Shown piece after piece: positions 238 through 48,611 of a stretch of 64,000 nt of DNA. Made by a program: the position numbers and the translations under genes. The notes under the pieces were generated by a model. That model was not told the origin of the DNA, searched no databases, and saw only the letters and a list, made by a program, of their open reading frames with translations. This DNA comes from a candidate division WWE3 bacterium GW2011_GWC2_41_23 (GTDB lineage: Bacteria > Patescibacteriota > WWE3 > UBA101185 > UBA10185): the NCBI GenBank assembly GCA_000996895.1, contig LCBB01000003.1, positions 3,659 to 67,658 of the forward strand, given 5' to 3'. The stretch's first letter is position 1, and each line of letters starts with the position of its first letter.

Positions 238-265
238 TAAATGGAGCCAAAGGTGGGGATCGAAC
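238..265. repeat. 28-bp direct repeat (taaatggagccaaaggtggggatcgaac) identical to the tRNA-Thr 3' end plus 4 nt; att-like distal copy
   Basis: Exact 28-nt match to 2163-2190, which covers the T-loop-to-CCA 3' portion of the minus-strand tRNA-Thr plus 4 flanking nt. Confidence 0.8.
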
Positions 266-276
266 GGGGGTTAGAT

Positions 277-795
277 TTAATCCGGTACTTTCATATTTTC
301 AAATTGCTCGTTTGCCCATTTTATGTGTTCTTCCAAGCTTTGGGAAAGGCCGAAATCAGCCCTGATTTTATTCACATTCTTTGGATTTTGAAGGGGAAGT
401 GGTTCGGATACGCTCTTACCATCCATGTTCTTGTGAATCTGCATAATTTCACCGAAGCGCTGTTTTTTTCCGCTACGTACGAGAGCATTATCAATTAATA
501 TGGCAACTTTTTCTCTGTCAGATGTACATTTTAGTATTTCGTCGGATTCGCAAATGCTTTCGATGAATTTTAGGTCTCTTGAGTGGCAGGATAGTGTTAT
601 GAACCGGTTAACACCCGATTCACCTAATTTACAAACAAAATCTGTCCCGAGAGTGCCGATTAAAAACTTCAGAATGTTTGTGGTAATGGTATCTGTAATT
701 TTGACAGGTAACACACCGTATTTTCCTTGGTATCTGACTTTTTGATCTACTTTAAATAGTATTGAAAGGAAGAAATTAACTATTTTGATTTTCAT
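277..795 (-). CDS. hypothetical protein (172 aa) inside the tRNA-Thr-associated island, downstream of the ATP-grasp gene
   Basis: Complete ORF with ATG start. It follows a terminator-like hairpin after the ATP-grasp gene. No recognisable motifs and a weak SD. Confidence 0.35.
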   Translation of the reverse strand: MKIKIVNFFLSILFKVDQKVRYQGKYGVLPVKITDTITTNILKFLIGTLGTDFVCKLGESGVNRFITLSCHSRDLKFIESICESDEILKCTSDREKVAILIDNALVRSGKKQRFGEIMQIHKNMDGKSVSEPLPLQNPKNVNKIRADFGLSQSLEEHIKWANEQFENMKVPD

Positions 796-817
796 ATAAG
801 TTTATTTAAAAAAGGCC

Positions 818-850
818 TGCAGGTGGTGCAAATTTCATGCATTGTGCAGG
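818..850 (-). terminator. rho-independent terminator-like hairpin after the ATP-grasp gene
   Basis: ggcctgcag...ctgcaggcc 8-9 bp stem, followed on the minus strand by TTTTTTT (ggcctttttttaaat). Confidence 0.5.
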
Positions 851-858
851 CCTTGCTG

Positions 859-1788
859 TTAATTCAGAAGCTTAGCAATCTCTTGGGCTATAGGGTGTCT
901 GCCTCCATTTTGAACAAAAATCCACGAACCTGTCGGATTGTTCTCTAGGAAGTAGTATATACCGTCTGTGCCTAAGATAAAATCCATTGCGCTAAACTTC
1001 AACCCGAAGTTTCGGACAAATGCGACACACCTGCTTTCTAGTTCTGCTGGAAGTTCTATGCGGCTATAGATTAGTTCGCCTTTTCTCCCATCTCTATAGT
1101 CCACGTCGTTTGTTTTCCGACCGACTTGTGTAATGGAGATGGAAAACACTCTATCGCCAACCACGATTGTTCTAATGTCAAACACCCTTTCTATTTCCTC
1201 CTGAAATATTGCCGGGGAAATAGGTAGCAGGCTGAAATCAACGGGGTCCTCCAGACCTATCCTGTTGGTAAAGATTGCCAAGAGTTTTCCCTCGCTGTTT
1301 ATAAGCATCTGTTTAGCTACGGGTTTAACTACAATTTTACCAACATCTGATCTGAACCTAATTGCCTCTTCGGGGCTGCTGGTTACTAGGGTTCTGGGTA
1401 TGGTCATGCCTAAACACTTGGCGGTTTCAAGCTGTAGCTGTTTGTTATCCGCGCGTTTTATGCGGTAAGGGTTTGACACCCACCGGGCTTTTTCCAGGAG
1501 TCCGTACAACTGGAAAACCATTTCTTCTCTGCACGCCCTGTTAAGCATCTCGTACGATCCGGCTTTTTCTTTTGTGTAAAAAAGGTTGGCGATGCGAAAC
1601 CATACGGAGGTAACGCTGTCAAGATCGAGGTTGTCCAAAGAGTGTCTGAATTTGTTTCCATTCCACTCATAGGACAGTTTTGGGAAGGGTATGTCATCAA
1701 TGTTCAGGCGTACAATTGGTTTGTCAATGTACTTTGTGACTTCCTGGAGCGTACGGTCGTTTGTGAGAGTGATTACTAACAGGCACAC
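859..1788 (-). CDS. ATP-grasp ligase, RimK/MdnC-MvdD-like (candidate graspetide/ribosomal peptide maturase)
   Basis: N-terminal 'CLLVITLTNDRTLQEV...RLNIDDIPFP' and C-terminal 'DVDYRDGRK...ELPAELESRCVAFVRNFGLKFSAMDFIL..DGIYYFLENNPTGSWIF' match the ATP-grasp peptide-ligase pattern (xENNPxGxW). Proposed start is GTG at 1788, preceded by AAGGAG 9 nt upstream. The track's TTG start at 1857 would overlap the upstream terminator hairpin. Confidence 0.7.
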   Translation of the reverse strand: MCLLVITLTNDRTLQEVTKYIDKPIVRLNIDDIPFPKLSYEWNGNKFRHSLDNLDLDSVTSVWFRIANLFYTKEKAGSYEMLNRACREEMVFQLYGLLEKARWVSNPYRIKRADNKQLQLETAKCLGMTIPRTLVTSSPEEAIRFRSDVGKIVVKPVAKQMLINSEGKLLAIFTNRIGLEDPVDFSLLPISPAIFQEEIERVFDIRTIVVGDRVFSISITQVGRKTNDVDYRDGRKGELIYSRIELPAELESRCVAFVRNFGLKFSAMDFILGTDGIYYFLENNPTGSWIFVQNGGRHPIAQEIAKLLN

Positions 1789-1814
1789 GGCATTACTCTC
1801 CTTGTCGGACGTAC

Positions 1815-1855
1815 AAAAAAAGATGGGGAAGGTCTGTGGTGGTAAGCACTTCCCC
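1815..1855 (-). terminator. intrinsic terminator/attenuator between precursor peptide gene and ATP-grasp gene
   Basis: Minus strand: GGGGAAG-(17 nt loop)-CTTCCCC followed by ATCTTTTTTT. It lies between the precursor stop (1869) and the ligase SD (about 1799-1804). Confidence 0.6.
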
Positions 1856-1868
1856 AAGGTAGCGACGC

Positions 1869-1988
1869 TCAGCAGGATTCGTAGTCGGTCTGTGTCCCGC
1901 TGGTATCGGCGTCATAAGTACACTTGCCATCGCATGTGGACTCGTCCGTTCTTTCAAGAACAACAACAAATTGCTCGTAGAAAGACAT
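1869..1988 (-). CDS. candidate graspetide (microviridin-like) RiPP precursor peptide, 39 aa: MSFYEQFVVVLERTDESTCDGKCTYDADTSGTQTDYESC
   Basis: Hand translation of the minus strand. ATG at 1986-1988 with the SD AAGGAGG 6 nt upstream; TGA stop at 1869-1871. The N-terminal aromatic helix-like segment (FYEQFVVV) resembles the PFFARFL-type leader motif. The C-terminal core is rich in Thr/Ser, Asp/Glu and Lys plus 3 Cys. The gene sits immediately upstream of the ATP-grasp ligase on the same strand. Confidence 0.65.
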   Translation of the reverse strand: MSFYEQFVVVLERTDESTCDGKCTYDADTSGTQTDYESC

Positions 1989-2034
1989 TGTAACCTCCTT
2001 TCTTATATATTCGATATGTACCAATTCTGAGTGT

Positions 2035-2062
2035 ATTGTATCCCAAGCTTTTGTCCTGTCAA
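2035..2062 (-). promoter_or_regulatory. sigma70-like promoter for the precursor peptide gene (-35 TTGACA, 16-nt spacer, -10 TACAAT)
   Basis: Minus strand TTGACAggacaaaagcttgggaTACAAT, located about 45 nt upstream of the precursor ATG. Confidence 0.55.
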
Positions 2063-2162
2063 ATGTTGTGGTGGCAAGGTTTTCTCCTAATGAGGTTGCT
2101 GACCTTGGGGGTAGCCTTCGCTGTAGTGGAATCCGCGCACAGGCTTGTGTAATTTGAGTTTT

Positions 2163-2190
2163 TAAATGGAGCCAAAGGTGGGGATCGAAC
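2163..2190. repeat. proximal copy of the 28-bp direct repeat (within the tRNA-Thr 3' end)
   Basis: Identical to 238-265. Confidence 0.8.
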
Positions 2191-2241
2191 CCACAACCTG
2201 CTGTTTACAAAACAGCTGCTCTACCATTGAGCTACTTTGGC
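2167..2241 (-). tRNA. tRNA-Thr (anticodon UGU), CCA encoded
   Basis: Reverse complement is GCCAAAGTAGCTCAATGGTAGAGCAGCTGTTTTGTAAACAGCAGGTTGTGGGTTCGATCCCCACCTTTGGCTCCA. It has a 7-bp acceptor stem, a GCTC/GAGC D-stem, a GCTGT/ACAGC anticodon stem with loop TTTGTAA, and a GTGGG/CCCAC T-stem with TTCGATC loop. Confidence 0.9.
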
Positions 2242-2366
2242 GAGTGTAACGAGCCAATGAGCGATGAAGTCGCACCTTTGGCGAGGCGAAGCGGGCCAAA
2301 GACTAATGACTTTGGCGAGTGTAACGAGCCAATGAGCGATGAAGTCGCACCTTTGGCGAGGCGAGG
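2235..2366. repeat. tandem duplication (2 x 55 bp, 76-bp period) of the tRNA-Thr 5' leader plus first 7-8 nt; upstream copy carries a minimal acceptor-stem hairpin
   Basis: ctttggcgagtgtaacgagccaatgagcgatgaagtcgcacctttggcgaggcga occurs at 2235-2289 and 2311-2365. On the minus strand the upstream unit ends GCCAAAG-tcattagt-CTTTGGC. Confidence 0.75.
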
Positions 2367-2524
2367 ATAGCATAAACCAATAGATTTTAGCACGAAATTT
2401 TTTGCAATAGAAAGAGTTGTTGTCCGCGTATGCGGAGCGATCCTGTTTACGTAATCTTTATATTTGTTGTAGAATCGGGTAAATACTTTTTTCTATTCAT
2501 GTAAGTCCAAAAGGAGAGCGCTAA

Positions 2525-2743
2525 ATGAATACGAAAGATGGTGACCCACTTAGGAAGAGTGCTGTTAATTATAATACCGGTGTTTCTAATACCGGTAATA
2601 ATTGGGGCGTTTCTACACCGATGCTATGGCATGAATCTTCAAGCATCAGCATTGCGGTCGACCACTGCTTGGGTTGTCAATGCCTGGATTCAGCCTGTCT
2701 TCACTGCCGCCACAAGCAGAACAGAAACCATAACGGACACTGA
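2525..2743 (+). CDS. small Cys-rich protein (72 aa; C-terminal HCLGCQCLDSACLHCRH), unknown function
   Basis: SD AAGGAG 6 nt upstream of the ATG. A strong hairpin plus T-run terminator follows at 2803-2856. An overlapping alternative frame (2538..2765) encodes a hydrophobic 75-aa peptide, so frame assignment is uncertain. Confidence 0.4.
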   Translation: MNTKDGDPLRKSAVNYNTGVSNTGNNWGVSTPMLWHESSSISIAVDHCLGCQCLDSACLHCRHKQNRNHNGH

Positions 2744-2802
2744 CCTTAATCAGAAAAGGAGCTAACCATTCAGGTACCTGAAAAGTATTTGCCTTATTAA
2801 AG

Positions 2803-2856
2803 CCGGAGGAACTGTGAAAATTTTTTATAAATTCACAACCTCCGGCGTAGTTTTTC
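2803..2856 (+). terminator. rho-independent terminator
   Basis: ccggaggaactgtgaa...ttcacaacctccgg stem (about 14 bp) followed by cgtagTTTTTcc. Confidence 0.6.
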
Positions 2857-2924
2857 CGTCAAAAAACCCTATATTTCTCAATCGTTGACACAGCAACGGC
2901 ATGTATGGTTTAATTCACTACGTT

Positions 2925-3173
2925 ATGTCAAGAATATGCGACTTTTGCGGTAAAACTTATCAGCAAGGAAACTTGGTCCCGAGAGGGGTCGGTAACCGTG
3001 TTACCAGAAGAACCACTAACAAGAGAAAAGCTAATTTAAGAAGTAAAAGGCTTGAGATTAACGGCCGAATGGTCAGAGTCACTATCTGTGCCTCCTGTCT
3101 GAAAAGACTTAAAAAAGACATTAAAGAGGCAAATTTGGCTTTAGTACAGGCGCAAGCACAGGTAGCCGCCTAA
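2925..3173 (+). CDS. rpmB: 50S ribosomal protein L28
   Basis: MSRICDFCGK...GN...NLRSKRLEINGRMVRVTICASCLK matches the L28 family pattern including the paired Cys motifs. Start taken at the internal Met of track ORF 2901..3173. Confidence 0.8.
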   Translation: MSRICDFCGKTYQQGNLVPRGVGNRVTRRTTNKRKANLRSKRLEINGRMVRVTICASCLKRLKKDIKEANLALVQAQAQVAA

Positions 3174-4108
3174 ACGAGATATCCGTTTTCAAACTCTTTC
3201 CACGACATCATTTTTTTCCCTTCAATTTGTAAATTATCAATCGAAATTTTATCTTTTTCCGGATGCGCGGAGTATATTTTGACCGCAAGCCCGCCGTCTA
3301 CGTGATCCCTGAACTTAATTTTTCCCTGTGAAAGACACCCGGCTTCCTGAATATCTTTCAGGTAAGTCCACGCAATAGGCCAGGGGTTAAACGCCCTAAT
3401 TTTTTGGTCGATGTTTTTTGTATCATTTTTCCAGTTAATAAGCCCGTCCTCTTTAAAAACGAAGGTATTGTGAGGATGAGTTCTGGAGAAGGTGTAAGTA
3501 GCGTTGTCTTCATCCTGGGGCATGGGCTTAATACTTCCTGAGCAGTACCCAAGAATAACATCAGGAAGTTTGTCGGCGGCAACGTGGAACAAAGTTTCGT
3601 AAAGTTCTCCCGACGTTTCGGTTTGGTTCATCTTATAACCTATCTGGCTAAGGATATCACCCGCATCCATACGTTTGCTAATAAGTTGATATGTAATTCC
3701 TGTTGTTTCGTCCCCGTTTAATATCGCGAATTGTACAGGGCTTGCTCCCCGGTATTTGGGTAGAAGAGAGAAGTGTATATTAGTCAATTTTCCGTCAAAA
3801 AATTTAATGATGTCTTCCGGAATCATGTAGCTGAAATCCGCGACTACTCCGTAGTCGGGCTTGTATTTGTGAAGGTCTTCTATCACCATTCGCAGGTCAT
3901 AATCTTTCAAGGACCTTATTTCCACATACCTGACACCCTGTTCCCGCGCCCACTTTTTAACCGCGGTTTCTCTTGTTTCGTGGTTTCTCCCCACTTTGGT
4001 ATCGCTTTTAGTAACACACAAAACCAGGCTAAACTCTTTGTGAAGACTCTCAAGTATGGGGAGCGACCTGTCCGAAGTTCCGAAAAACGCGACTTTTAAT
4101 TTTTTCAC
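3170..4108 (-). CDS. fmt: methionyl-tRNA formyltransferase
   Basis: KVAFFGTS..., SLLPKYRGASPVQFAILNGDETTGITY motifs. Overlaps the def stop, as in a def-fmt operon. Confidence 0.9.
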   Translation of the reverse strand: MKKLKVAFFGTSDRSLPILESLHKEFSLVLCVTKSDTKVGRNHETRETAVKKWAREQGVRYVEIRSLKDYDLRMVIEDLHKYKPDYGVVADFSYMIPEDIIKFFDGKLTNIHFSLLPKYRGASPVQFAILNGDETTGITYQLISKRMDAGDILSQIGYKMNQTETSGELYETLFHVAADKLPDVILGYCSGSIKPMPQDEDNATYTFSRTHPHNTFVFKEDGLINWKNDTKNIDQKIRAFNPWPIAWTYLKDIQEAGCLSQGKIKFRDHVDGGLAVKIYSAHPEKDKISIDNLQIEGKKMMSWKEFENGYLV

Positions 4109-4641
4109 TGCCCCTCCTGTGAAAATAAGGCGTCCATTTCCTGCTCGGTTATTACGCCCCCAACCACTCTGTCCGTAAACAAAACGCCCTCCAAGTGGTC
4201 TATTTCATGCTGAACTGTCCTTGCAAAAAAATCCTGAGCCTTAATTTTTATGCGTTCTCCCGAAATGTCCAGAGCATCTACTTTTATTTTTTTGTAGCGT
4301 TCTACCTTTCCGTAAACATTTGGGACGCTTAGGCACCCCTCGTAATCAATTTCGGTTTCTTTGGAGGTACTCACTATTTTAGGATTTATAAGTACGTAAT
4401 CTTCGTGTGTGTACTCGCCGTTTTTGGCGGGGTCGGGAAAAAAATTCCTTACAACACACATCTTTTTTGAAACCCCGATTTGTGTAGCGGCGATGCCGGC
4501 TCCCTCAGGGTCTTTTGCCACTTCTAAGGTATCCAGCAGGTCCCGAGCAAGCTTTTTTTCTTCTTCTCCGACCTTGCTTACCTTTTGAGCCTTGTTCCGT
4601 AACACGGGGTCAGGTATTGTAACTATTTGTCTGATTGCCAT
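4105..4641 (-). CDS. def: peptide deformylase
   Basis: GIAATQIG, EGCLSVP and HEIDHLEG motifs. Confidence 0.92.
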   Translation of the reverse strand: MAIRQIVTIPDPVLRNKAQKVSKVGEEEKKLARDLLDTLEVAKDPEGAGIAATQIGVSKKMCVVRNFFPDPAKNGEYTHEDYVLINPKIVSTSKETEIDYEGCLSVPNVYGKVERYKKIKVDALDISGERIKIKAQDFFARTVQHEIDHLEGVLFTDRVVGGVITEQEMDALFSQEGQ

Positions 4642-4737
4642 GCCTCATATTTTACCACTATTAAGGGATTTCTATGTGAGTGGGGCAGTTGAGCGTACGT
4701 GTTGTGTTATACTCGAAAATGTTACTCTAAGGTAAAT

Positions 4738-4836
4738 ATGAAACTTGTAATTGTTGAGTCGCCTACAAAAGCAAAGACGCTGTCCAAGATTTTACCTCAG
4801 TCTTACAGCATAAAGTGGTTTAGGTGTGGATGTTGA
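4738..4836 (+). other. topA: topA N-terminal fragment (MKLVIVESPTKAKTLSKIL...) in a different frame from the main topA ORF
   Basis: ATG at 4738 encodes the canonical topoisomerase I TOPRIM start, ending at TGA 4834-4836 in frame 1. The rest of topA is in frame 2. Confidence 0.6.
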
Positions 4837-6868
4837 AAAAGATTTTACCCTCACATACGAAGTCCCTTCCAAAGCAAAAAAAGTTTTGACAGATTTGAAA
4901 AAAACTGCGAAAGAGGCGGAGGAAATTGTTTTAGCAACTGATCCTGATAGGGAAGGGGAGGCGATTGCATGGCACCTGGAGGAGCTGTTGCGCGGAAAAA
5001 AAGACACAAGAGTTTTTTCACGCGTTGTTTTTCACGAACTAACTAAAGAAGCAATTAACGAAGCGTTTAAAAATCCCGGAAAAATAGATTTGGATTTGGT
5101 CGACGCCCAACAAGCACGCAGGGTGCTGGACAGATTAGTGGGCTACAAACTGTCCCCATTACTTTGGAAGAAAGTTATGTACGGGCTGTCGGCAGGCCGC
5201 GTTCAGAGCGTTGCTGTGCGGTTAGTTGTTGAACGTGAAAGGGAGCGGCAGGCATTTAACCCCGAGGAATACTGGGGGGTTTTGGGGGAATTTCAAAACG
5301 GCAGCAAAAAAAAGATTCGGGCCGAGCTTTCGGAGATAAACGGCAAGAAAGTTGAGATAAAAAACGGAGGACAGGCGGAAGAAATTAAAGCCGGGGCGTT
5401 AAAAGGAACTTATTCAGTCATCTCATTAAAAAAATCAGAGCGAAAAAAGAACCCATATCCCCCTTTCAAGACATCCACTCTCCAACAGGCAATGGCCAAT
5501 ATATATGGGTTTAACGCCAAAAAAACGATGCGGGCAGCACAGGGGTTGTTTGAGAAGGGGTACATCACCTACCACAGAACGGACTCACTGAGCCTTTCCC
5601 CGCACTTTATCAATACGGCGCGCGAACTGATAAAAAAACGCTTCGGAGAGACCTATTTGCCTGCTACCCCTAACCTATATAAGACAAAGTCAGCTAATGC
5701 TCAGGAGGCACACGAAGCAATTCGTCCTACTTCGGCACATGCAGTGCCATCAAAAAGTATAGGGTTGTCAGGAGATGAGTTTAAAACATACTCGATAATT
5801 TGGTTAAGGAGTTTAGAATGCCAGATGAATCCCTCCATATATGAACAGACATCTTTATCTATAGGTTCGGATGAGGGGTATATTTTTAAGGCTTCGGGAT
5901 CCACAGTGTTGTTCGAGGGGTGGTTGGCCGTCTCAAAAATGGTCGGAGTAAAAGAGGACGAAGAGGAAACCTCTAGTATTCTTCCGGAATTAGTCGAAGG
6001 AACCAAAATGAAGCTTCTGGAGATAAAAAATGAACAACATTTTACCCAACCTCCGGCGAGATACAACGACGCTTCTTTGATAAAAAAGATGGAGGAAATG
6101 GGAGTCGGACGACCTTCGACTTACGCGCCCACACTTTCCACCATTCAGGACCGCAAATATGTGTTACGTGACGGTAGATATTTTTACCCCAACGATGTTG
6201 CTTATGTGGTCGTTGACCTTTTAGTAGAGCACTTTCCGGAAATTGTCGATTATAACTTTACAGCCCTGATGGAGGAGAGTTTGGATAAGGTTGCGGAAGG
6301 AAAAGTACAGTGGGTTCCGGTAATACGCGAATTTTATAAACCTTTCGAAAAGAAAATACTCGCGAAAGACAAAGAACTAAATAAAAGGGATGTGACAAAT
6401 CTGGGTGACAGTGAAGAAAAATGTCCGGAATGCGGCCGTGTTCTGGTTTTTAAACTAGGCAAATTCGGCAAGTTTTTAAGCTGCTCGGGATACCCGGATT
6501 GCAAGTACGCCAAGCCTTTAGAACCACTAAACGGTGTCGGCGGGGAAGATGAAGATTTTGGAAAATGCGATAAATGCGAAGATGGAATAATGGTTTTGAA
6601 GCAGGGAAGATTCGGAAAGTTTTTAGCCTGCAGCAATTATCCGAAATGCAAGAATACTAAGCCGTTTTTGGATAAAATAGGAATGAAATGCCCGCAATGC
6701 GGGGAAGGCGAGGTAGTAAAGAAAAAGTCTAAGTGGAAAGAGTTTTACGGATGCAGCAGATACCCCGATTGCGACTGGAAGAGTTGGAAGAATCCGATGG
6801 TTGTGGCAAGTGGGAATGGGGAAGATAGCGAGAAAGAGAGTGGCGATTCAATTGACAGTTTAGTTTAA
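4826..6868 (+). CDS. topA: DNA topoisomerase I (main body; three C-terminal C4 zinc ribbons)
   Basis: DPDREGEAIAWHL, YITYHRTDS, and 3x CxxC...CxxC ribbons. The apparent 5' frameshift and small deletion are described under findings. Confidence 0.85.
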   Translation: MDVEKDFTLTYEVPSKAKKVLTDLKKTAKEAEEIVLATDPDREGEAIAWHLEELLRGKKDTRVFSRVVFHELTKEAINEAFKNPGKIDLDLVDAQQARRVLDRLVGYKLSPLLWKKVMYGLSAGRVQSVAVRLVVERERERQAFNPEEYWGVLGEFQNGSKKKIRAELSEINGKKVEIKNGGQAEEIKAGALKGTYSVISLKKSERKKNPYPPFKTSTLQQAMANIYGFNAKKTMRAAQGLFEKGYITYHRTDSLSLSPHFINTARELIKKRFGETYLPATPNLYKTKSANAQEAHEAIRPTSAHAVPSKSIGLSGDEFKTYSIIWLRSLECQMNPSIYEQTSLSIGSDEGYIFKASGSTVLFEGWLAVSKMVGVKEDEEETSSILPELVEGTKMKLLEIKNEQHFTQPPARYNDASLIKKMEEMGVGRPSTYAPTLSTIQDRKYVLRDGRYFYPNDVAYVVVDLLVEHFPEIVDYNFTALMEESLDKVAEGKVQWVPVIREFYKPFEKKILAKDKELNKRDVTNLGDSEEKCPECGRVLVFKLGKFGKFLSCSGYPDCKYAKPLEPLNGVGGEDEDFGKCDKCEDGIMVLKQGRFGKFLACSNYPKCKNTKPFLDKIGMKCPQCGEGEVVKKKSKWKEFYGCSRYPDCDWKSWKNPMVVASGNGEDSEKESGDSIDSLV

Positions 6869-6990
6869 AGTTTTAAGAATTTTTCAGTAGCTTATAGCAA
6901 TTGTCATATTGCATTGTTTGTGCTAATATCCAGCCACGCGAATGCGTTAGTCAATCAGACAAAATACTCTTAGAAAGAGGAGGAGAGAAA

Positions 6991-7761
6991 ATGAACGCCA
7001 GAAACTTAAAAGGACTTTTGGTCCTGGTCTTGGTGGTTTCTTTAGTTGGTGGTTGTAGAGGATGCGATGTTATAAAGCCTACTGCTGTGTCAGTAGTGCC
7101 GTCGTCTACTCCAAAGCCTGTAGTACCCGCTGCAACCCAAACACCAACTGCAACCCAAACACCAACGGTCAAACCGACTGAAACCAACACACCGACGGTT
7201 ACGCAAACACTTGAACCGACGGTTGTTCCTACCGCGCTTTCGGCGGAGGGATACACATTCTTTGGAACCCAGCTTAAGTATTTGATTGATACTTCCGGTT
7301 GGGACTACAAGCCTTTGAATTGTGGGGCTGATGTATTTATAGGCGAAAGGAATGTGCTAATCGCAGAGTCGGGCGTCTGTCCCAGAATAATCGTTCCTGT
7401 TGCGGATAGAGCGGACGGGAGCTACCTAATTGAGGCAGAATATTGGTGGTTACCGTCGGATGGTACCAACAGCACGGCAGTACCTTTTGACCACAGATTC
7501 TATGTATACAAAGGAGACATGATAGACTCTGGGATATCCTGGCTGGATTTGGATGAATCCTCTACTATAGAGGCAATTGCAGGAGGGTATAATTTCGTTT
7601 GGGAAAAATCATTGGAAATCAGTGCTTCTATTGGAACGGAGGTGTTTCTTCCAAGCCCTGTGAAAATTTTCCCGCTCACTTCTGCAGAGTACCTATCGGT
7701 GATTTCTCGCCCGGATCTTTTTCCTCAGTATTTGGAATCTGCGGTTCAACCGAGAAAATAA
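6991..7761 (+). CDS. putative lipoprotein with Thr/Pro-rich low-complexity linker
   Basis: AGGAGG SD before ATG 6991. Signal peptide ends in the lipobox-like LVGGC. Contains TQTPTATQTPTVKPTETNTPTVTQT repeats. Confidence 0.6.
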   Translation: MNARNLKGLLVLVLVVSLVGGCRGCDVIKPTAVSVVPSSTPKPVVPAATQTPTATQTPTVKPTETNTPTVTQTLEPTVVPTALSAEGYTFFGTQLKYLIDTSGWDYKPLNCGADVFIGERNVLIAESGVCPRIIVPVADRADGSYLIEAEYWWLPSDGTNSTAVPFDHRFYVYKGDMIDSGISWLDLDESSTIEAIAGGYNFVWEKSLEISASIGTEVFLPSPVKIFPLTSAEYLSVISRPDLFPQYLESAVQPRK

Positions 7762-8427: not shown

Positions 8428-11169
8428 ATGAAAGTATATTTAAAATTACTACTTTTTTATGTTGTCTTCACGATACCATTTGCTGGGGGGTTTCCCGCTG
8501 TTTCAGCTGCTACGTGCAGTTCAACCGAATGTTCGGGAGTTAAAGTTGAGAACGGTCTTACTTACTATGAATATGCGTGTGCTGGAAACACATATTGTTG
8601 CTACGCTGAGGGGTGCCCTAGCTGGGATTGCGTTGCTAGAGGTTGTTGCTGGTACTCAACAAGCGACGGCGCCGGTATGTGTAACACGAGAGCTACTTCC
8701 GGTTGTCCCGGATCATATTATGGTATATCGTGTACCATCAATGCTGCGGATGAATGCAGACCGTGCGGGGGTACTACCGGTGGCGGTGGCACAACATACG
8801 GTAAAATCATCGGCCGCATATGGAATGATGTAGATAAAAATGGCACGTATGGCGGCGTATCGGAACTATGGTCCAATACCGCTACAACGTGTTCTACATA
8901 CAAAAACGATTCTTTCAATATCCAGGAAGCGGGAACCAATAGGTTAGCTAGCTGGGCCTGCAATACCGAATGGGGTGTTCAGGCAGCATACTACACCTCG
9001 TCTGATATAGTTATCGGCTCAAAAACAATCACCCTAACAGGACTTCCTTCCGGTTATGCGTGCGGTAGCTGGTCATTTTCCAAGACCGGCGACACCAGCA
9101 CCACTGATGGCACAGGATGTGTCACAACAGCAGTTCCGATTATTGAGGGGACGAACAACCATCTATGGTGGAGAATTGTGAAAACTAATATCGCCCCTAC
9201 GCTTAGTATTGTGCCCTCCAGCGTTTCTTACTCAGGATACGCTTTGCATCCGCTTAAGATCGTTGCGGCAGATGGGGAGCCGTACGGCAGTTTAAAAATA
9301 TCTACGTCACTATCACCACCCAACAACGGGTGGCTTCCTGAGGTTCCGGCGATAAGTTTCCGTGCTTACGGTTCGACCGGCGACGGTATTTGGCCAATTG
9401 CCAAGATTTATGGTTGGAACAAGAGTACGGGCAGCCGCGTCGAGCTTAAAACTTTTAATATCAATACCGCAACTCCCACTGACTACTGGTTTGACGTTCC
9501 TTCTCCCGGTTTATACTCTTTTTTTGATTTGGAATTTACAAATGACTACAACGGGGGTGTGGGAAAGGACGTAAATCTTTACGTTGATAATCTTACCTAC
9601 ATTGCGGATAACATGTTTTATCAGACCCTTTACAAATTTGAAGCCGAGGATGCAAATCTTGTCCAGTACGATCGGTACCATCCTGACGACGGATACGGGC
9701 TGGTAAGCCCAAGTACAGCTACATCATCCGTGCCCGGCGCAACGTATGCGGTGATGGCCTGGAACGGCGCATTAAGATTTCCTGTTGTCTGGCAGTCTCC
9801 CACAACGGCGATAAACGGAAAGATTAATTTCACTGTTACGGATGATATCGGTGCTTCACTTTCCAAGTCGGTTCCAACAACGCCTATCACAGGTACTGTT
9901 ACCGGAAAGGTTTGGATAACTGCAAATCCTGCAGTATGTACGGCCTCTCATACGCCAGTTCTAACTACAGGTATAGTTACGGCAACTGCAGGCGGCACAA
10001 ATCTATCGGCACCTTTAAATTCTTTCGGTCAATACACTGTAGCCGGTTTGTTTGGCAGCATAAGCCAGTTGTGTCTTAGCGGACTGCCGGCAACCCCCGC
10101 ATACCGAATTGCGTGTAGAAACGGAGTACCCGTTTCTGCCACAACGGGTTCGTGCGACTATATCTCTCCTTCACTTTCCGGAACCGGTACCACAACAATT
10201 GATATCGGCATCCGTCCTATAACGGCAAAGGGTTGGCTGGCCGCTATGGGAAGCGATCTTTACGCAAAGGATGTTGTAGAAAGTCTTCCGCCTTACACGG
10301 GATGTCCGTTTTTGGGTAACTACTATGGTATGTGTCCGACATTCACGGAGACGCATCCTACAAGGATACCGGATCACTACGTGCTTAACTACAATCCTTG
10401 GGTAGCAACTCCCGCGTCCTCAACCGTATTTACGGAAGATGATGTGGTATCTCTTGGTCCTTCTTTGGACGAGCTGTCGGAGTCAGGGGTTTCTGCGACC
10501 CGGGTCGGTTCAAAGTTTAGAGAGAAAAACAAACAGTATTTTTCCTCTTTTCATAGTCTGATCGACACACTAAAAAATGCTCCTACCGGTACTTACAGTG
10601 CCACATCCAGTTTAAGTAACCGAACTTTTACAAAAAATTCAATAACAATCTGGAATGCCGGTACGTCGACCATTCCTGCTCCGGCCATCGGAAACTATAG
10701 TTATACCGTTTCGGACGGTTTGGCCTTTTTAGTCATTCCAAGAAACGGTCCTTCCACTAACGCGATTAACATAAACAAAATCACAACCTCAGGTGCGGGG
10801 CGTCTCGTGATTCTTGCCGATAGGGACATAAATATCGGCAGTTCTGCTGTAGGATCTTCCAACAACCTTAAAAACGATACCGCGGATATTCAGGCATCCA
10901 TTATTACAACGGGTAACGTCACCGTAAACAACTATCTGTCAGCGTCATCTTCCGCAGGGACCGTTATCATAGAGGGCCCTCTTATTATCGGGGGAGGAAC
11001 GGGAATGACGATAAACAGATCCCTTGGAACAGACAATGAATTTAGGCCTGCGGTCTTTGTCAGATTCAACCCGCTTTATATTACAAAACTAAACGATTTA
11101 GCTATGAAAAATACAATTCCTGCCCTAAATCCGCTTTTTACATTTGATTTTACAAGTGAGACGGAATAG
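8428..11169 (+). CDS. large secreted Cys-/Gly-/Thr-rich surface protein (about 913 aa), possible pilus-associated adhesin
   Basis: Signal peptide MKVYLKLLLFYVVFTIPFAGGFPAVSAA. Cys-rich N-terminal module, and a C-terminal Gly/Ser/Thr-rich region (beta-helix-like; structural interpretation is speculative). Sits directly upstream of a PilX-like gene. Confidence 0.6.
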   Translation: MKVYLKLLLFYVVFTIPFAGGFPAVSAATCSSTECSGVKVENGLTYYEYACAGNTYCCYAEGCPSWDCVARGCCWYSTSDGAGMCNTRATSGCPGSYYGISCTINAADECRPCGGTTGGGGTTYGKIIGRIWNDVDKNGTYGGVSELWSNTATTCSTYKNDSFNIQEAGTNRLASWACNTEWGVQAAYYTSSDIVIGSKTITLTGLPSGYACGSWSFSKTGDTSTTDGTGCVTTAVPIIEGTNNHLWWRIVKTNIAPTLSIVPSSVSYSGYALHPLKIVAADGEPYGSLKISTSLSPPNNGWLPEVPAISFRAYGSTGDGIWPIAKIYGWNKSTGSRVELKTFNINTATPTDYWFDVPSPGLYSFFDLEFTNDYNGGVGKDVNLYVDNLTYIADNMFYQTLYKFEAEDANLVQYDRYHPDDGYGLVSPSTATSSVPGATYAVMAWNGALRFPVVWQSPTTAINGKINFTVTDDIGASLSKSVPTTPITGTVTGKVWITANPAVCTASHTPVLTTGIVTATAGGTNLSAPLNSFGQYTVAGLFGSISQLCLSGLPATPAYRIACRNGVPVSATTGSCDYISPSLSGTGTTTIDIGIRPITAKGWLAAMGSDLYAKDVVESLPPYTGCPFLGNYYGMCPTFTETHPTRIPDHYVLNYNPWVATPASSTVFTEDDVVSLGPSLDELSESGVSATRVGSKFREKNKQYFSSFHSLIDTLKNAPTGTYSATSSLSNRTFTKNSITIWNAGTSTIPAPAIGNYSYTVSDGLAFLVIPRNGPSTNAININKITTSGAGRLVILADRDINIGSSAVGSSNNLKNDTADIQASIITTGNVTVNNYLSASSSAGTVIIEGPLIIGGGTGMTINRSLGTDNEFRPAVFVRFNPLYITKLNDLAMKNTIPALNPLFTFDFTSETE

Positions 11170-43827: not shown

Positions 43828-44370
43828 ATGTCGGGGCACTCTAAATGGGCAAATATCAAAAGAAAAAAGGAAGTTACGGACGCTAAAAAAGGCAAAATTT
43901 TCTCAAAGATGAGCCGTCTCATCAGTGTTGCAGCCCGTAACGGCGCGGATCCCGATTCTAATGCTCCGTTAAGAATAGCGGTCGAAAAGGCTAAAGAAGC
44001 CAGAATGCCGAAGGAAAATATAGATAAGGCTATCGCTAAAGGCTCGGGACAGGGCGGGGGAGACAGCTATTCGGAGGTCACTTATGAAGGTTTTGGACCC
44101 GGGGGTGAAGCTTTTTATATTTTAGCTTTAACAGACAACAAAAACAGGACGGTTTCAGAAATCAGAAACATTTTTAGTAAAGCCGGTGGATCTTTAGGTG
44201 GGGCGGGTAGTACCGCGTACATTTTTAATCCTGATCCTGAGAACCCTTCTTATTCAATGGAAATCGATGATCCTAAATATGCTTCAAGACTGGAATCTCT
44301 TTTGGAAGAACTGGACGACCATGACGATGTTCAGGATGTATATGTAAATTTCGTCCTGCCGGAAGAATAA
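43828..44370 (+). CDS. yebC: YebC/PmpR-family transcriptional regulator (short form)
   Basis: MSGHSKWANIKRKK... hallmark N-terminus. Confidence 0.85.
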   Translation: MSGHSKWANIKRKKEVTDAKKGKIFSKMSRLISVAARNGADPDSNAPLRIAVEKAKEARMPKENIDKAIAKGSGQGGGDSYSEVTYEGFGPGGEAFYILALTDNKNRTVSEIRNIFSKAGGSLGGAGSTAYIFNPDPENPSYSMEIDDPKYASRLESLLEELDDHDDVQDVYVNFVLPEE

Positions 44371-44374
44371 CGAC

Positions 44375-44857
44375 ATGGTAATTTTAGGTATTGATCCGGG
44401 AACGGCGAGACTCGGGTATGGAATAATCAAAGAAAAAACTAAAGACAGGTTGTCGTTAGTTAAATCGGGCGTTTTTGTTACAGCAAAAGAATCACAATTA
44501 CAGGACAGACTCCTTTATTTATACGAAAATCTTCTTGAGCTTATTGAAAAATATTCCCCTGACGTAATAGTCGTGGAACGTATATTTTTTAACACGAACG
44601 CTAAGACAGCTATTGCAGTGGGACAGGCTAGGGGAGTAATACTTTTGTCAGCGGCCCGTACAAAAACCCGTATACACGAGTACACGGCTCTTGAAGCTAA
44701 ACTGGTGTTGACGGGGTACGGCAGATCGGACAAAAAAGTTATGCAGGAAGCTGTAAAGGATATTCTTCAGCTTGAGGCTATCGTCAAGTCCGACGACGCT
44801 AACGATGCCGTTGCTATGGCTTTATGTTACATAAAAAAAGGAGAGTCCAAAAAATGA
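44375..44857 (+). CDS. ruvC: crossover junction endodeoxyribonuclease RuvC
   Basis: ILGIDPGTARLGYGI and catalytic acidic residues. Confidence 0.9.
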   Translation: MVILGIDPGTARLGYGIIKEKTKDRLSLVKSGVFVTAKESQLQDRLLYLYENLLELIEKYSPDVIVVERIFFNTNAKTAIAVGQARGVILLSAARTKTRIHEYTALEAKLVLTGYGRSDKKVMQEAVKDILQLEAIVKSDDANDAVAMALCYIKKGESKK

Positions 44858-45675
44858 TTCGCACTATTACACAGACAATAACCCAAAAAGTAGAGAAGAA
44901 ATACAGGTTTGCAATACACGCGCTATTTTATGCTGCATTTTTGTTCTTACACAGCAGCGGATTTATCCCTCTTGAGAGTTTCGGACTTTATTTCGCCATA
45001 CTTTTAGTTACAAGCTTTTCAGTAATCCTCGTGCATTATCCGAACGTGACCTACAGGAACATTTTTATGGCTGTACTTTTACCTATGAACCTCGCCTTAG
45101 GAGGCACCCTGGCTTTATTGCTTTTTCCTAATATAAGTTTGGTATTTAAACTCTCAGCGATAATTGCCTTTTCATTTTTGGATTATATTATTTTGCTGAT
45201 AAATAATGTTTTTTTGGTGATAGAAGACAGAGAAGAAGTGATCCCTCTTTATAGGGTTGCGGTTACGTGGAGTTTAATACTACAAATCATAGTTCTGATA
45301 CCCCTTGTCGCCTCCATCTACAAATTTAATGTTAATAGCTTTTACCATGCCACAGCAGTAGCTGTTTTAGCATTTTTTTATTCTTTATATCAGATATGGG
45401 TTACCAGGTACGATAAAGATGCGAAGAACGCCGGGGTAGCAGAGAAGATTTTTTTATCGTTTATCGTATTTTTCCTGGTTTTTTCCGGTGTGATAGGTGT
45501 TTCTTTCATTCCGTCTGAACCGTTTCTAAGAGCTTTGTTTACATCGTCCGTTGCCATGTTCGGGCTTAGCTATGTAAGCGCCTATTTAAAAAACGAAATT
45601 AATAAGAAATTTATATTTCAGTACGCTTTTATTACGATAGTTTTCCTCGTGTTAATGTTGATATTCCGCCCTTAA
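44854..45675 (+). CDS. hypothetical polytopic membrane protein
   Basis: Multiple TM helices; ATG overlaps the ruvC TGA (ATGA). Confidence 0.45.
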   Translation: MIRTITQTITQKVEKKYRFAIHALFYAAFLFLHSSGFIPLESFGLYFAILLVTSFSVILVHYPNVTYRNIFMAVLLPMNLALGGTLALLLFPNISLVFKLSAIIAFSFLDYIILLINNVFLVIEDREEVIPLYRVAVTWSLILQIIVLIPLVASIYKFNVNSFYHATAVAVLAFFYSLYQIWVTRYDKDAKNAGVAEKIFLSFIVFFLVFSGVIGVSFIPSEPFLRALFTSSVAMFGLSYVSAYLKNEINKKFIFQYAFITIVFLVLMLIFRP

Positions 45676-45679
45676 GTAC

Positions 45680-46506
45680 CCGGGTAGGTGAGTGAAGAAG
45701 GGGAGAACCAAGAGAAGAACTATAGGGTATAATTTGTCGTACTTCCTAGCAATAAATACTATAGGGTGCTAATGTCGAACATAATCCCGTACGTTTGACC
45801 TATATTTAAGGACGTTTGTCATATATCTGAGCAAATAAACTGTTCATTTTATGACAGTATTCGTTGTAACAGCAACGTTCTGCACGATTGTCATACTTTT
45901 CGGTGGGGTGGGGGTGTGGATAACTCAGGACGCCGGTTTCGGTAATTCAGTTTTAATAATTCAGATCATCCGGAGAGCAGGGAATTTTTATTCTTTTCTA
46001 TTAATAAATTAGATTAATAAATATTCGTTAATTAAAAATCATAAATAAATCTTTTGCGTTTATTTTTAGTGCATTCATTCTCTCTCACTAATTTGTGTCG
46101 TATATTTGCTTTGGCCACGCCACAGGCTCAGCCTCCAACTCAACGTCGTTAAACATACATTATACGACGTGTGGCGTGTAGACAAAACCGGCATGCCCCA
46201 CGTATAGGTATATCTTATTTTATTCACGCGAAATTATTTTTCTATTTTCTCTATTTATTACTGTAATAATATTTTCTGCTTCTCTTCCAAAAATATACTT
46301 TCCCCTATTATTCCCGTGTATCCTTATAAATTACATTTAACGCACGGTGCCCCTCCCAAAATTTTTCTGATTTCTCTACCCGCCTCCGGTTCGTTGGGAT
46401 ATTTCATCCTCTATGTACTATAATCTATATATCTTAATGAAATTCGGGCTCATTTCATGAGATGCTGTGCCATTATTTGTTGTTGTGATAAATTTTTTTA
46501 AAAAAG
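45680..46506. other. about 830-bp ORF-free AT-rich region with several inverted repeats and poly-G tracts (possible ncRNA / recombination site / regulatory region)
   Basis: No ORF over 60 aa on either strand in the track. Contains gccacgccacag...tgtggcgtg and ctataggg repeats and a gtggggtgggggtgtgg tract. Confidence 0.4.
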
Positions 46507-47547
46507 ATGACTAAAGTATCGTTAGACTCAAATCTCTCCGACGTGATAACCCAGTACCTCGAGTATTGTGAGATAGAAAAGAACCTCTCGCAGAACACTC
46601 TCAAAATGTATCATTTTTATTTAACGGATTTTTTAGAATGGCTGGGTGCGTTTTTAAAAATAGACAAAATCACCCTGGCGGAAATTACCGACGACAATAT
46701 TAAAAAATACAGACTTGATCTTAACCGCAGAATAAGTAGAAAATCCAACATGGAATTTAAACGTTCCACCCAAAAGACTTTTTTGGTTGCAATAAGGGCT
46801 TTATTGAAGTATTTGGTGGTTGAAACGGAGGTTGAGATTATGTCTCCGGAACAGATAATACTTGGAAAATCGGACGACCGTGTGCCCAAAGTCCTTAACG
46901 AAGAGCAGATGAAAAGGCTATTTGACGGCCAGGACCTGAGCAAAAGGTCCGGAATAAGGGACCGAGCCATTTTAGAAACTTTGTACAGTACGGGGCTTCG
47001 TGTTAGCGAACTCACCAAGTTAAACAGAGACGACGTTAATCTTATTTCCGGAGAGTTTACCGTTATAGGTAAGGGACGCAAAGCAAGAACTGTCTATTTA
47101 TCCCCCGCAGCAAAAGACTGGATAAAAAGGTACCTGGGGATTCGGGGGGATTCTTTTAAACCTTTATTTCTAAGATATTCAGGTAAGCACATGGAGTCGG
47201 ATGATTTTGACGGCGAGTCGTTGAGGCTTACAGTGCGCAGCGTTGAAAGAATGATTAAGAAATATGTTACGAACTCCGGCATTTCCGTTGATGCTACGCC
47301 CCATACTCTCAGGCACACTTACGCCACAGGGCTGCTTCAGGAGGGGGCGGATTTAAGAAGCGTTCAGGAATTGTTAGGCCACTCTAATGTTTCTACGACA
47401 CAGATTTACACCCACATCACGAACAGGCAGCTTAAAAACATTCATAAGCTTTATCACAAGGATATTGACGGTAAGCCGGCTTCTTACGCAAAAGACAACG
47501 AAGAAGATGTTAGTGACGACGACGCAGGAATAACTTCTTTAAGCTAA
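46507..47547 (+). CDS. tyrosine site-specific recombinase (XerC/XerD-like integrase family)
   Basis: RAILETLYSTGLRVSEL, HTLRHTYAT, LLGHSNVSTTQIYTHI with catalytic R-H-R-Y. Carries a C-terminal acidic extension. Confidence 0.85.
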   Translation: MTKVSLDSNLSDVITQYLEYCEIEKNLSQNTLKMYHFYLTDFLEWLGAFLKIDKITLAEITDDNIKKYRLDLNRRISRKSNMEFKRSTQKTFLVAIRALLKYLVVETEVEIMSPEQIILGKSDDRVPKVLNEEQMKRLFDGQDLSKRSGIRDRAILETLYSTGLRVSELTKLNRDDVNLISGEFTVIGKGRKARTVYLSPAAKDWIKRYLGIRGDSFKPLFLRYSGKHMESDDFDGESLRLTVRSVERMIKKYVTNSGISVDATPHTLRHTYATGLLQEGADLRSVQELLGHSNVSTTQIYTHITNRQLKNIHKLYHKDIDGKPASYAKDNEEDVSDDDAGITSLS

Positions 47548-48611
47548 TTCAAAATCACATCATGCGCGTTGCTTTCACGTATGCCGGCCGGGGTTACACG
47601 AATAAATTCGGCGTTTTTCCAAAGTGCCTCTAAATTTATTGCACCGGAGTAACTAAAGCCCGATCTGATACCTGCTAACAGGCTTTCGATAACGTCCTGA
47701 AGCGGCCCTTTATAAGGTACTAATGCTTCTACACCCTCGGTATGATTGGTGTACGATTCGTTTTTATCCTGCGAATACTTCCCTATCTGTCGCACCTTTT
47801 CCTTTTTAGAGGTTGAACCGTTGTACTCTTTATATTCTTTACCGTTAATTTCAATTATTTCCCCGGGCGCCTCATCCGTTCCTGCCAATAAATTACCTAA
47901 TGTTACCGCAGATGCTCCCGCGGCAAGTGCCTTAACTATGTCGCCTGAGTTTTTAGCGCCCCCATCAGCAATTATTGTTTTACCGTATTTTTCTGCTGCC
48001 TTTTTTGCCTCACATATCGCGGTTATCTGCGGGACACCGTGGCCGGTCATTATTCTTGTAGTGCAGATGGAACCCGGTCCTACCCCGACCCTGACGGCGT
48101 CGGCGCCGGATTCAAATAGGGCGCAGGCCCCTTCATACGTGGCAATCACTCCGGCAATTACCGTTAGATCTTTACCGTACTTCTCCGCTATATATTTAGT
48201 TGCGCTGACAAATCTATCCATATGTCCGTGGGCAACATCCATAAGAATTACTTTAGCTCCGGCCTTAGCCAGGATTTCCGCCACTAATTTGTAACCCTCT
48301 TTACAACCCAGCGAGGCTGCAGCAACAACTCCCGAACTTGCGATTTTGGAAATATTGTCGGCTTGAATTTCCGGAGCGTCGAATCTTGGTAAAATTCCCA
48401 TTCCCCCTAGTTTTCCCAGTGCCACAGCCATTTCCACGCCTGTTACTGAATCCATATTTGTAGATATTAATGGAATGGACAGTTCAAGATTTTTAGATAT
48501 ACGGGTATTAAGGTTTATATCCCTTCTCGACCCTATTGAAGAGACTTTGGGTATTAATAAAACGTCGTCGTAGCTGAGAGCTGTTCTCAGGTCGTTTAAA
48601 TACACAATCAT
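47544..48611 (-). CDS. guaB: IMP dehydrogenase/GMP reductase-family protein (no CBS domains)
   Basis: [36 protein letters not shown]. Confidence 0.75.

Follow-up and report, generated by a model that had tools for sequence, protein, structure and literature searches.

The nearest known natural precedent for the element described here would seem to be the tyrT locus of Escherichia coli, which reportedly carries 178-bp tandem repeats that are processed to an RNA named rtT. The tyrT repeats lie downstream of the gene, each contains only the 3'-terminal ~19 nucleotides of the transfer RNA (tRNA) for tyrosine, they are not known to form acceptor-stem hairpins, and they have been ascribed to unequal recombination. 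Tandem clusters of tRNA genes and pseudogenes are also known, for example the tRNA-Pro/His repeats of Photobacterium, as is, from experiments, the birth of tRNA genes by tandem duplication, and type III toxin-antitoxin systems encode ToxI-type tandem RNA repeats of ~36 nucleotides that fold into pseudoknots and are cut by an endoribonuclease. Here we analyse a 64-kb window of contig LCBB01000003.1 (the whole stretch of DNA examined, to which positions refer unless a relative is named) from a bacterium of candidate division WWE3 (Katanobacteria; Candidate Phyla Radiation (CPR)/Patescibacteria), a group with tiny, compact genomes. The region at issue, 2235-2366, had been flagged in a first-pass annotation as a duplicated tRNA-Thr leader. 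It holds an array of hairpins made from the acceptor stem of the adjacent tRNA-Thr(UGU) gene.

The array is real, specific to this locus, conserved within its clade and variable in copy number, and it consists of acceptor-stem minihelices and microhelices in the leader of the pre-tRNA. Its units share with the tyrT repeats a tandem arrangement, the orientation of the neighbouring tRNA gene and a fragment of that tRNA's end; those of tyrT are reportedly co-transcribed and processed. The WWE3 units differ in lying upstream, in measuring 33-75 bp, in containing both acceptor strands as a hairpin, and in their conservation and covariation between species. Tandem tRNA clusters share with this locus the duplication of a tRNA and the subsequent decay of extra copies, but known tRNA pseudogenes are cloverleaf-sized and decay irregularly, whereas those of WWE3 have been cut back to exact acceptor-stem hairpins and preserved. 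With type III antitoxin arrays they have in common tandem repeats of ~33-45 nucleotides for which cutting into unit-length structured RNAs is proposed; unlike those arrays, they are simple tRNA-stem hairpins followed by a tRNA and not by a toxin gene. A type III antitoxin array was considered and rejected, as the genes that follow vary with the species and Pfam, NCBIfam and PHROGs recognise no toxin among them. CRISPR and integron attC readings were set aside in the same way, there being no spacers or cassettes. In architecture the modules most resemble synthetic mini- and microhelices (PMC4033280; PMC12439589), in which a 7-bp acceptor stem ends in a loop or continues into another helix of ~5 bp; the minihelix substrates have a small bulge on the 5' side, an unpaired 5' leader and a discriminator-like base. 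The synthetic substrates end in a free 3' NCCA, whereas the WWE3 modules are genome-encoded and internal to a precursor, continue into UCG or UCA and a linker, have no T-loop sequence, and are putative substrates of cleavage and charging. A literature search returned no described equivalent, that is, no genome-encoded, evolutionarily maintained arrays of mini- or microhelices, and the array goes unmentioned in the paper on the RAAC2 WWE3 genome (PMC3812714).

The tRNA-Thr(UGU) gene is on the minus strand with its 5' end at 2241, and the flagged region therefore comprises the first bases of the tRNA and its 5' leader. CCA is encoded, the acceptor stem is GCCAAAG/CTTTGGC, the discriminator is U, and the tRNA sequence is identical or one base different in all clade members. 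Read on the tRNA strand, the leader runs promoter, minihelix, microhelix, minihelix, tRNA. Its features are given below, R1 being a covariance model of the long modules.

2167..2241, minus strand: tRNA-Thr(UGU) gene (ARAGORN; Rfam RF00005 at 75.2 bits)
2242..2252, minus strand: proximal linker tcgttacactc, positions -11 to -1 of the pre-tRNA, with C at -1 (sequence)
2253..2282, minus strand: proximal minihelix GCCAAAG-gt-GCGA-cttca-TCGC-t-CATTGGC, 30 nucleotides (R1, 46.8 bits, E 6e-11)
2283..2294, minus strand: linker ccgcttcgcctc from the microhelix to the proximal minihelix (sequence)
2295..2316, minus strand: microhelix GCCAAAG-tcattagt-CTTTGGC, 22 nucleotides, a perfect copy of the 7-bp acceptor stem (R1, E 0.015)
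2317..2327, minus strand: linker tcgttacactc, the same as the tRNA-proximal linker (sequence)
2328..2357, minus strand: distal minihelix, identical to 2253-2282 (R1, 46.8 bits)
2358..2364, minus strand: 5' edge of the repeated unit, tcgcctc (sequence)
2384..2392, minus strand: inferred extended -10 promoter TGCTAAAAT, with TGnTAAAAT at the same place in all clade members
2234..2289, plus strand: direct repeat copy 1, exact over 56 bp, including tRNA nucleotides 1-8
2309..2364, plus strand: direct repeat copy 2, exact over 56 bp, 75 bp from copy 1

The 55-bp unit of the first-pass annotation is indeed present in two exact copies (2235-2289 and 2310-2364, 0 mismatches; 0 copies expected from 100 shuffles), with a period that measures 75 and not 76 bp. 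Its description of the unit as leader, tRNA 5' end and internal hairpin is correct on the tRNA strand, where the unit reads tcgcctc (linker), GCCAAAGgtgcgacttcatcgctCATTGGC (hairpin), tcgttacactc (leader -11 to -1) and GCCAAAGT (tRNA nucleotides 1-8). The full leader is thus tcgcctc, GCCAAAGgtgcgacttcatcgctCATTGGC (2357-2328), tcgttacactc, GCCAAAGtcattagtCTTTGGC (2316-2295), ccgcttcgcctc, GCCAAAGgtgcgacttcatcgctCATTGGC (2282-2253), tcgttacactc and the tRNA, GCCAAAGTAGC...CTTTGGCTCCA. All three hairpins are built from the tRNA acceptor strands (GCCAAAG with CTTTGGC or CATTGGC), and each unit holds tRNA nucleotides 1-7(8) and 66-72 followed by U73-C74, in the orientation of the tRNA. The array was returned by find_repeats and by a pattern search, and went unreported by Tandem Repeats Finder, whose threshold lies above two copies. 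The 'body-less' tRNA that had been noticed is the microhelix (2316-2295, minus strand), in which an 8-nt loop separates the two acceptor strands. Its predicted fold has -9.2 kcal/mol (z = -4.57), and none of 200 shuffles was as stable. The minihelix (-10.9 kcal/mol, z -2.75) has a 7-bp acceptor-type stem with one A.A mismatch, a 2x1 internal loop and a 4-bp inner stem. As whole molecules the hairpins are no tRNAs: across the leader Rfam returned no family besides the tRNA itself at E<=10, no leader hairpin matched its tRNA model, and only 2167-2241 was called as tRNA by Rfam and ARAGORN.

The genomes closest to that of the window are WWE3, including the complete RAAC2_WWE3_1, with Fmt 88-90% identical. 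An identical array of two units is shared by at least seven independent assemblies (L001-L004, L178-L180; NCBI, JGI and ENA), some with contigs of 100-190 kb, which answers an earlier concern that it might be an artefact of assembly; in L003 the tRNA is seemingly missing only through an NN scaffold gap. Altogether eight species-level WWE3 lineages (the window species, L008, the L009 group, L010, L011, L158, L166 and L161) have one to four modules at the same place, between the conserved TGnTAAAAT and the tRNA, each species with unit sequences of its own. Outside the window these arrays are composed as follows (percentages refer to Fmt).

L008: a degenerate minihelix, two microhelices and another minihelix
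L009: three 33-bp units, each GCCAAAGgcagtagtCTTTGGC followed by tcgctacgttc
L010: three units
L011 (RAAC2): one and a half units
L158 (77%): a microhelix and a minihelix
L166 (75-76%): two minihelices
L161 (73%): a minihelix, a microhelix and a minihelix

Microhelices orthologous to that of the window, with loops gcagtagt or tcagtagt, occur in L008-L011. The outgroups L012 (Fmt 70%) and L163 (68%) have no modules upstream of tRNA-Thr, and the tRNA of L163 is one base off that of the window. Within the clade, the number of units differs between assemblies. Microhelix units with identical flanks number one in L167, three in L009 and four in L060, module number is one in L165 and two in L166, and L007 has at least four 75-bp units, a count made uncertain by the end of the contig inside the array. 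This variation between assemblies, together with a second tRNA-Thr copy decaying on the 3' side, bears out the earlier suggestion that the tRNA-Thr locus is prone to recombination. The junction ...YTC-GCCAAAG, which recurs at each unit and at the start of the tRNA, would readily lend itself to slippage or unequal exchange.

At the four-fold degenerate positions of fmt, identity among the eight lineages is down to 26-61%, almost at saturation, and the stretch of leader from the promoter to the first hairpin is unalignable between lineages. Microhelix loops are nearly alike across the lineages (gcagtagt, tcagtagt, tcattagt), and the linkers form two conserved types, tcRctWcgttc and tcggctNcgcctc; despite the saturated synonymous sites, the linker tcacttcgttc is the same in L010 and L161, and tcggctatcgcctc is the same in L158 and L166. 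In 21 of 22 tabulated modules the next bases are TC, as in the tRNA (U73-C74), and in 19 the preceding ones are YTC, as at tRNA positions -3 to -1. Pairing is conserved as well. In an alignment of eight distinct long modules, all five pairs of the inner stem vary on both sides, 88.5% of the cells are paired against 35-53% with slid partners, and the covariation score was reached by none of 500 shuffles, for a sample that is small and whose modules are related to one another. The microhelix of L158 shows a compensatory change of its acceptor-type stem to GCTAAAG/CTTTAGC, while the L158 tRNA retains GCCAAAG.

To define how specific the array is, ~320 tRNAs were scanned, from WWE3 loci and from 120 metagenome loci retrieved by the anticodon-arm sequence of tRNA-Thr(UGU); 119 of these were tRNA-Thr(UGU), with many different acceptor stems. 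Upstream hairpins made of a tRNA's own acceptor strands were found only at WWE3 tRNA-Thr(UGU) with GCCAAAG/CTTTGGC. The one other match was a long tRNA-like fragment 331 nucleotides upstream in L138; ~110 other tRNA-Thr(UGU) loci had no such arrays, and the Tyr, Thr(GGU), Trp and Leu tRNAs of the same genomes had no such hairpins upstream. Run with filters off across the 64-kb window, R1 returned the three leader elements and nothing else, and across 445 kb of related and unrelated loci it returned leader elements of the clade and none away from tRNA-Thr; a pattern scan gave no dispersed copies either. The array is not a dispersed repeat family within the sequence scanned, and the first-pass annotation's worry about a widespread intergenic repeat finds no further copies to rest on; a dispersed family of the REP/BIME/MITE or REP/RAYT kind was rejected on the same single-locus occurrence. 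The sole acceptor-strand palindrome met away from a tRNA leader, GCCAAAG-N12-CTTTGGC inside the def coding sequence (L156, 4549-4574; L157, 1304-1329), is probably due to chance.

The metagenome contigs also contained an arrangement of another kind. In contigs of other CPR bacteria, an intact tRNA-Thr(UGU) sits within an anticodon-loop insertion of an outer tRNA-Thr-like gene (L056, ~5560-5900; L095, ~990-1142; L112, 1-380; possibly L069, ~6640-6900). The 5' and 3' halves of the outer gene flank the inner one, with GC-rich palindromic insertions in the D- and T-loop regions of the outer gene. Nested or disrupted genes of this type occur in several unrelated CPR lineages, and we know of no description of them.

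The promoter motif TGCTAAAAT is present as a single copy, upstream of the array and outside the repeat, and leaves a leader of ~136 nucleotides. It was not called by the consensus promoter scan, and its -35 element is poor. As the sole promoter-like motif (2392-2384) it speaks against the duplicated promoter that had been considered as an explanation of the repeat; a processing element, the other role considered for the duplication, would be plausible. Where arrays exist, the motif is 67-176 nucleotides from the tRNA; in outgroups devoid of arrays, an equivalent motif is found 57 nucleotides (TGTTAGAAT, L163) and 27 nucleotides (TGATAAAAT, L012) before it. With the motif upstream of the arrays and close to the tRNA in the outgroups, the arrays appear to be insertions into a transcribed leader. 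A terminator search found 0 sites in 1800-3000, and the hairpins continue into UCGCUUCGUUC-type linkers; an intrinsic terminator or attenuator was rejected for lack of a U-tract after the hairpins. Two further observations concern promoters at this locus. In L008, L010 and L011, and in the window at ~222-214 on the minus strand, the gene that comes after the tRNA seems to have TGTGCTAAAATCCCC as its promoter; this motif resembles TGCTAAAAT, which suggests that the extended -10 is the usual promoter form in the clade. Divergent from the tRNA promoter lies a small Cys-rich open reading frame (ORF) of 72 amino acids (2525-2743, plus strand) with no family match, and ORFs of 64-87 amino acids occupy the same position in the relatives L002, L004, L158, L161, L156 and L167.

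Traces of the origin of the modules can be read at the locus itself. The repeat that the first-pass annotation had taken for att-like does exist on the 3' side, as an exact 28-bp match between 238-265 and 2163-2190.

238..265, minus strand: second tRNA-Thr remnant, the last 24 nucleotides of the tRNA plus TTTA (28-bp exact repeat)

This repeat is more plausibly what is left of a decayed second tRNA-Thr copy than an integrase attachment (att) site. In L009 (9920-9994), L060 and L167 the second copy is almost complete except for the 5' acceptor strand, and its promoter has decayed; in L011 (~8470-8551) the homologous promoter and second copy are the functional ones. The locus has therefore been duplicated and then resolved in a different way in each lineage. 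Duplication of tRNA-Thr and decay by deletion are thus directly visible at the locus. Among the modules, the third of L008 (GCCAAAG-tt-GTGGC-tcc-GCCAC-c-CTTTGTC) aligns to the end of the variable loop and the T-arm of the tRNA, with only 6 of 1000 shuffles scoring equally. The TC after the hairpins and the leader-like linker would be consistent with an event in which 'leader plus tRNA to C74' was duplicated and the body then lost.

We lean, with moderate confidence, towards a reading in which the array consists of tRNA-derived 'top-half' modules that lie in a transcribed leader, are kept self-paired by selection and are cut by RNase P. Each module combines four elements. A 7-bp acceptor stem, that of the tRNA, is closed by a loop of 6-8 nt (microhelix) or by a 2x1 internal loop with a second helix of 4-6 bp (minihelix); then come a T-C dinucleotide like the discriminator U73 and C74, and an 11-14-nt linker that is like, and in places identical to, the tRNA leader from -1 to -11. 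A leader-plus-tRNA unit would have been duplicated and the tRNA body then deleted internally, and later changes in unit number would stem from slippage or unequal exchange at the ...YTC-GCCAAAG junctions, the 75-bp duplication of the window representing one such step. The modules would be transcribed within the pre-tRNA from the single TGCTAAAAT promoter. By folding autonomously, each would sequester its extra acceptor strands and avoid competition with the acceptor stem of the tRNA; because the modules share the leader/G1-C72 junction and U73-C74 with the tRNA, RNase P, along with other RNases, could cut each of them, dividing the leader into hairpin units and freeing the tRNA, and selection would keep the hairpins paired. 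In the minimum free energy fold of the whole leader with the tRNA the cloverleaf is not part of the predicted structure, and in the partition function the native acceptor stem has a probability of ~1e-4 even with the leader removed, the model not folding this stem.

The modules are probably removed by RNase P. Hairpins of acceptor stem plus T-arm with a 5' bulge are good substrates of the RNase P HARP in vitro (PMC12439589), and the tRNA top half is recognised by RNase P, the CCA-adding enzyme and synthetases (PMC4033280). The long modules have the make-up of such minihelix substrates, with 7 bp, a 2x1 internal loop and 4-6 bp, and a YTC leader stands before G1 in 19 of the 22 modules; the microhelices offer a stem of 7-9 bp only. 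That the modules are leader hairpins which derive from the tRNA and are under constraint is far more certain than their cutting by RNase P.

Several observations weigh against this reading. We infer both transcription of the array and cleavage by RNase P from the DNA sequence. Bacterial RNase P RNA prefers a 3' RCCA, and the 3' flank of the modules is UCG or UCA (once CCG), so that only the bases like U73 and C74 are retained. Against the T-arm, 137 of 1000 shuffles score as well as the long hairpin of the window, too many for significance. Double changes in a short palindrome can also arise by intrastrand template switching, with no selection on an RNA. Many modules have one mismatch (C2.U71 in CTTTGTC, A6.A67 in CATTGGC) and the module L008a is clearly decaying, and the constraint is therefore not absolute. 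On manual reading, G.U and C.A pairs in the aligned modules occur in two cases each way, and such wobble and mismatch patterns do not show which strand is structured. Finally, the two module-free outgroups mean that the tRNA does not need the modules, which are dispensable for it.

A rival possibility is that the hairpins are neutral debris of duplicated tRNA-Thr genes, a slippage-prone minisatellite that would look conserved only because it is regenerated or gene-converted from the tRNA ends and corrected on its own palindromes, with selection playing no part. The differing unit number between assemblies, the degenerate modules (L008a and those with CTTTGTC or CATTGGC), the outgroups with a near-identical tRNA and no modules, and the decaying second tRNA copy at the same locus would all be expected of debris. 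However, conversion from the tRNA cannot maintain loops, inner helices and linkers, and these are conserved or covary at near-saturated divergence. Furthermore, modules are retained in all eight clade lineages despite very compact genomes; the mean intergenic distance in RAAC2_WWE3 is 66 bp (PMC3812714), and in genomes so compact a structured leader of 60-170 nucleotides is unlikely to be idle filler. We therefore consider neutral debris unlikely.

A different view is that the released hairpins are themselves the product, perhaps 3'-trimmed and CCA-tailed, and mimic the acceptor end of tRNA-Thr as a decoy or sponge for an enzyme or toxin that binds acceptor stems, or as an aminoacyl carrier. 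Loops and linkers are conserved beyond the needs of pairing, each hairpin is followed by bases like U73 and C74, and the top half suffices for RNase P, the CCA-adding enzyme and several synthetases (PMC4033280). Against a product stand the lack of any partner protein linked to the locus, the neighbouring genes varying between species, and the position of the recurrent C2.U71 mismatch on the second acceptor pair. In E. coli this pair is an identity element for threonyl-tRNA synthetase. A product role is doubtful on this balance, and so is its corollary that WWE3 bacteria naturally make free top-half RNAs of tRNA-Thr, released from the leader by RNase P-type processing, that have a job of their own, with copy number as a tuning knob.

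The covariation of the long modules is equally compatible with a palindrome that acts as DNA, and the array might then supply palindromic operators or cruciforms to which a regulator or recombinase binds, for instance to tune transcription of tRNA-Thr as a roadblock. Perfect 7-N8-7 palindromes do recur in L009 and L010 at a 33-bp period, which is about three helical turns. The half-sites, however, are exactly the tRNA acceptor strands and the third L008 module keeps T-arm sequence, so the source of the palindromy is the tRNA. In other lineages the modules are not evenly spaced (41/34/41 in the window), and no linked regulator or recombinase gene was found with Pfam, NCBIfam or PHROGs. A DNA-level element is accordingly quite improbable.

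The first-pass annotation had suggested, as one option, scars of serial integrase events at the tRNA gene, and a tRNA 3'-end repeat flanking an island does occur at this locus. The features on this side of the tRNA are as follows.

266..2162, minus strand: island of 1.9 kb between the tRNA copies, with the ORFs below
277-795, minus strand: 172-aa DUF6624-like protein
859-1857, minus strand: ATP-grasp peptide maturase (NCBIfam TIGR04187 / MvdC / MvdD, E 1e-53 to 3e-44, below the curated cut-offs; Pfam)
1869-1988, minus strand: precursor-like ORF of 39 amino acids, rich in Thr, Asp, Glu and Cys (MSFYEQFVVVLERTDESTCDGKCTYDADTSGTQTDYESC)
2062-2035, minus strand: promoter-like TTGACA-16-TACAAT

The units, however, hold the 5' acceptor strand and lie upstream, head to tail and in phase with the tRNA 5' end, with no foreign DNA between them, and the modules persist and their stems covary across eight lineages with near-saturated synonymous sites. 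The 3' repeat, for its part, is better explained by the decayed second gene copy. None of the flanking ORFs scanned (277-7761; Pfam, NCBIfam, PHROGs) is an integrase, and the leader had no match in 50,697 phage records, the tRNA body alone matching. Integrase scars are thus largely refuted and very improbable. Duplication of an att site was likewise rejected, the 5' array having no intervening DNA and including the 5' strand, and the 28-bp repeat bounding a 1.9-kb island that has no integrase. An artefact of collapsed or duplicated reads can be dismissed as next to impossible: contigs L007, L156, L175 and L176 do break inside the array and some copy numbers may be unreliable, but the independent assemblies agree on an identical array and seven other lineages have homologous ones.

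The island itself looks like a graspetide cluster, that is, one for an ATP-grasp ribosomally synthesised and post-translationally modified peptide. The window species and the L009 group carry it, whereas L008 and L010 do not; L011 has only the 172-aa gene, placed upstream of the tRNA. In L008, L010 and L011 the sequence that follows window position 238 comes directly after the tRNA. The locus has rpmB, fmt, def and topA as neighbours. Elsewhere in the window, the cumulative GC skew rises to ~46 kb and then falls, together with a switch of the dominant gene strand (~44000-48000); this turn may mark a replication origin or terminus.

Mini- and microhelices are classic laboratory models for the reading of the acceptor end by RNase P, the CCA-adding enzyme and synthetases, and they figure in ideas on the origin of tRNA. 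If the WWE3 modules are processed as proposed, they would constitute a natural system for RNase P site choice on tandem substrates, and an example of duplicated structured-RNA genes that have been 'made safe', not erased, in a streamlined genome. Under the same proviso, a locus of variable unit number could set the level of one tRNA. In any case, the locus documents the birth and decay of a tRNA gene copy in uncultivated CPR bacteria.

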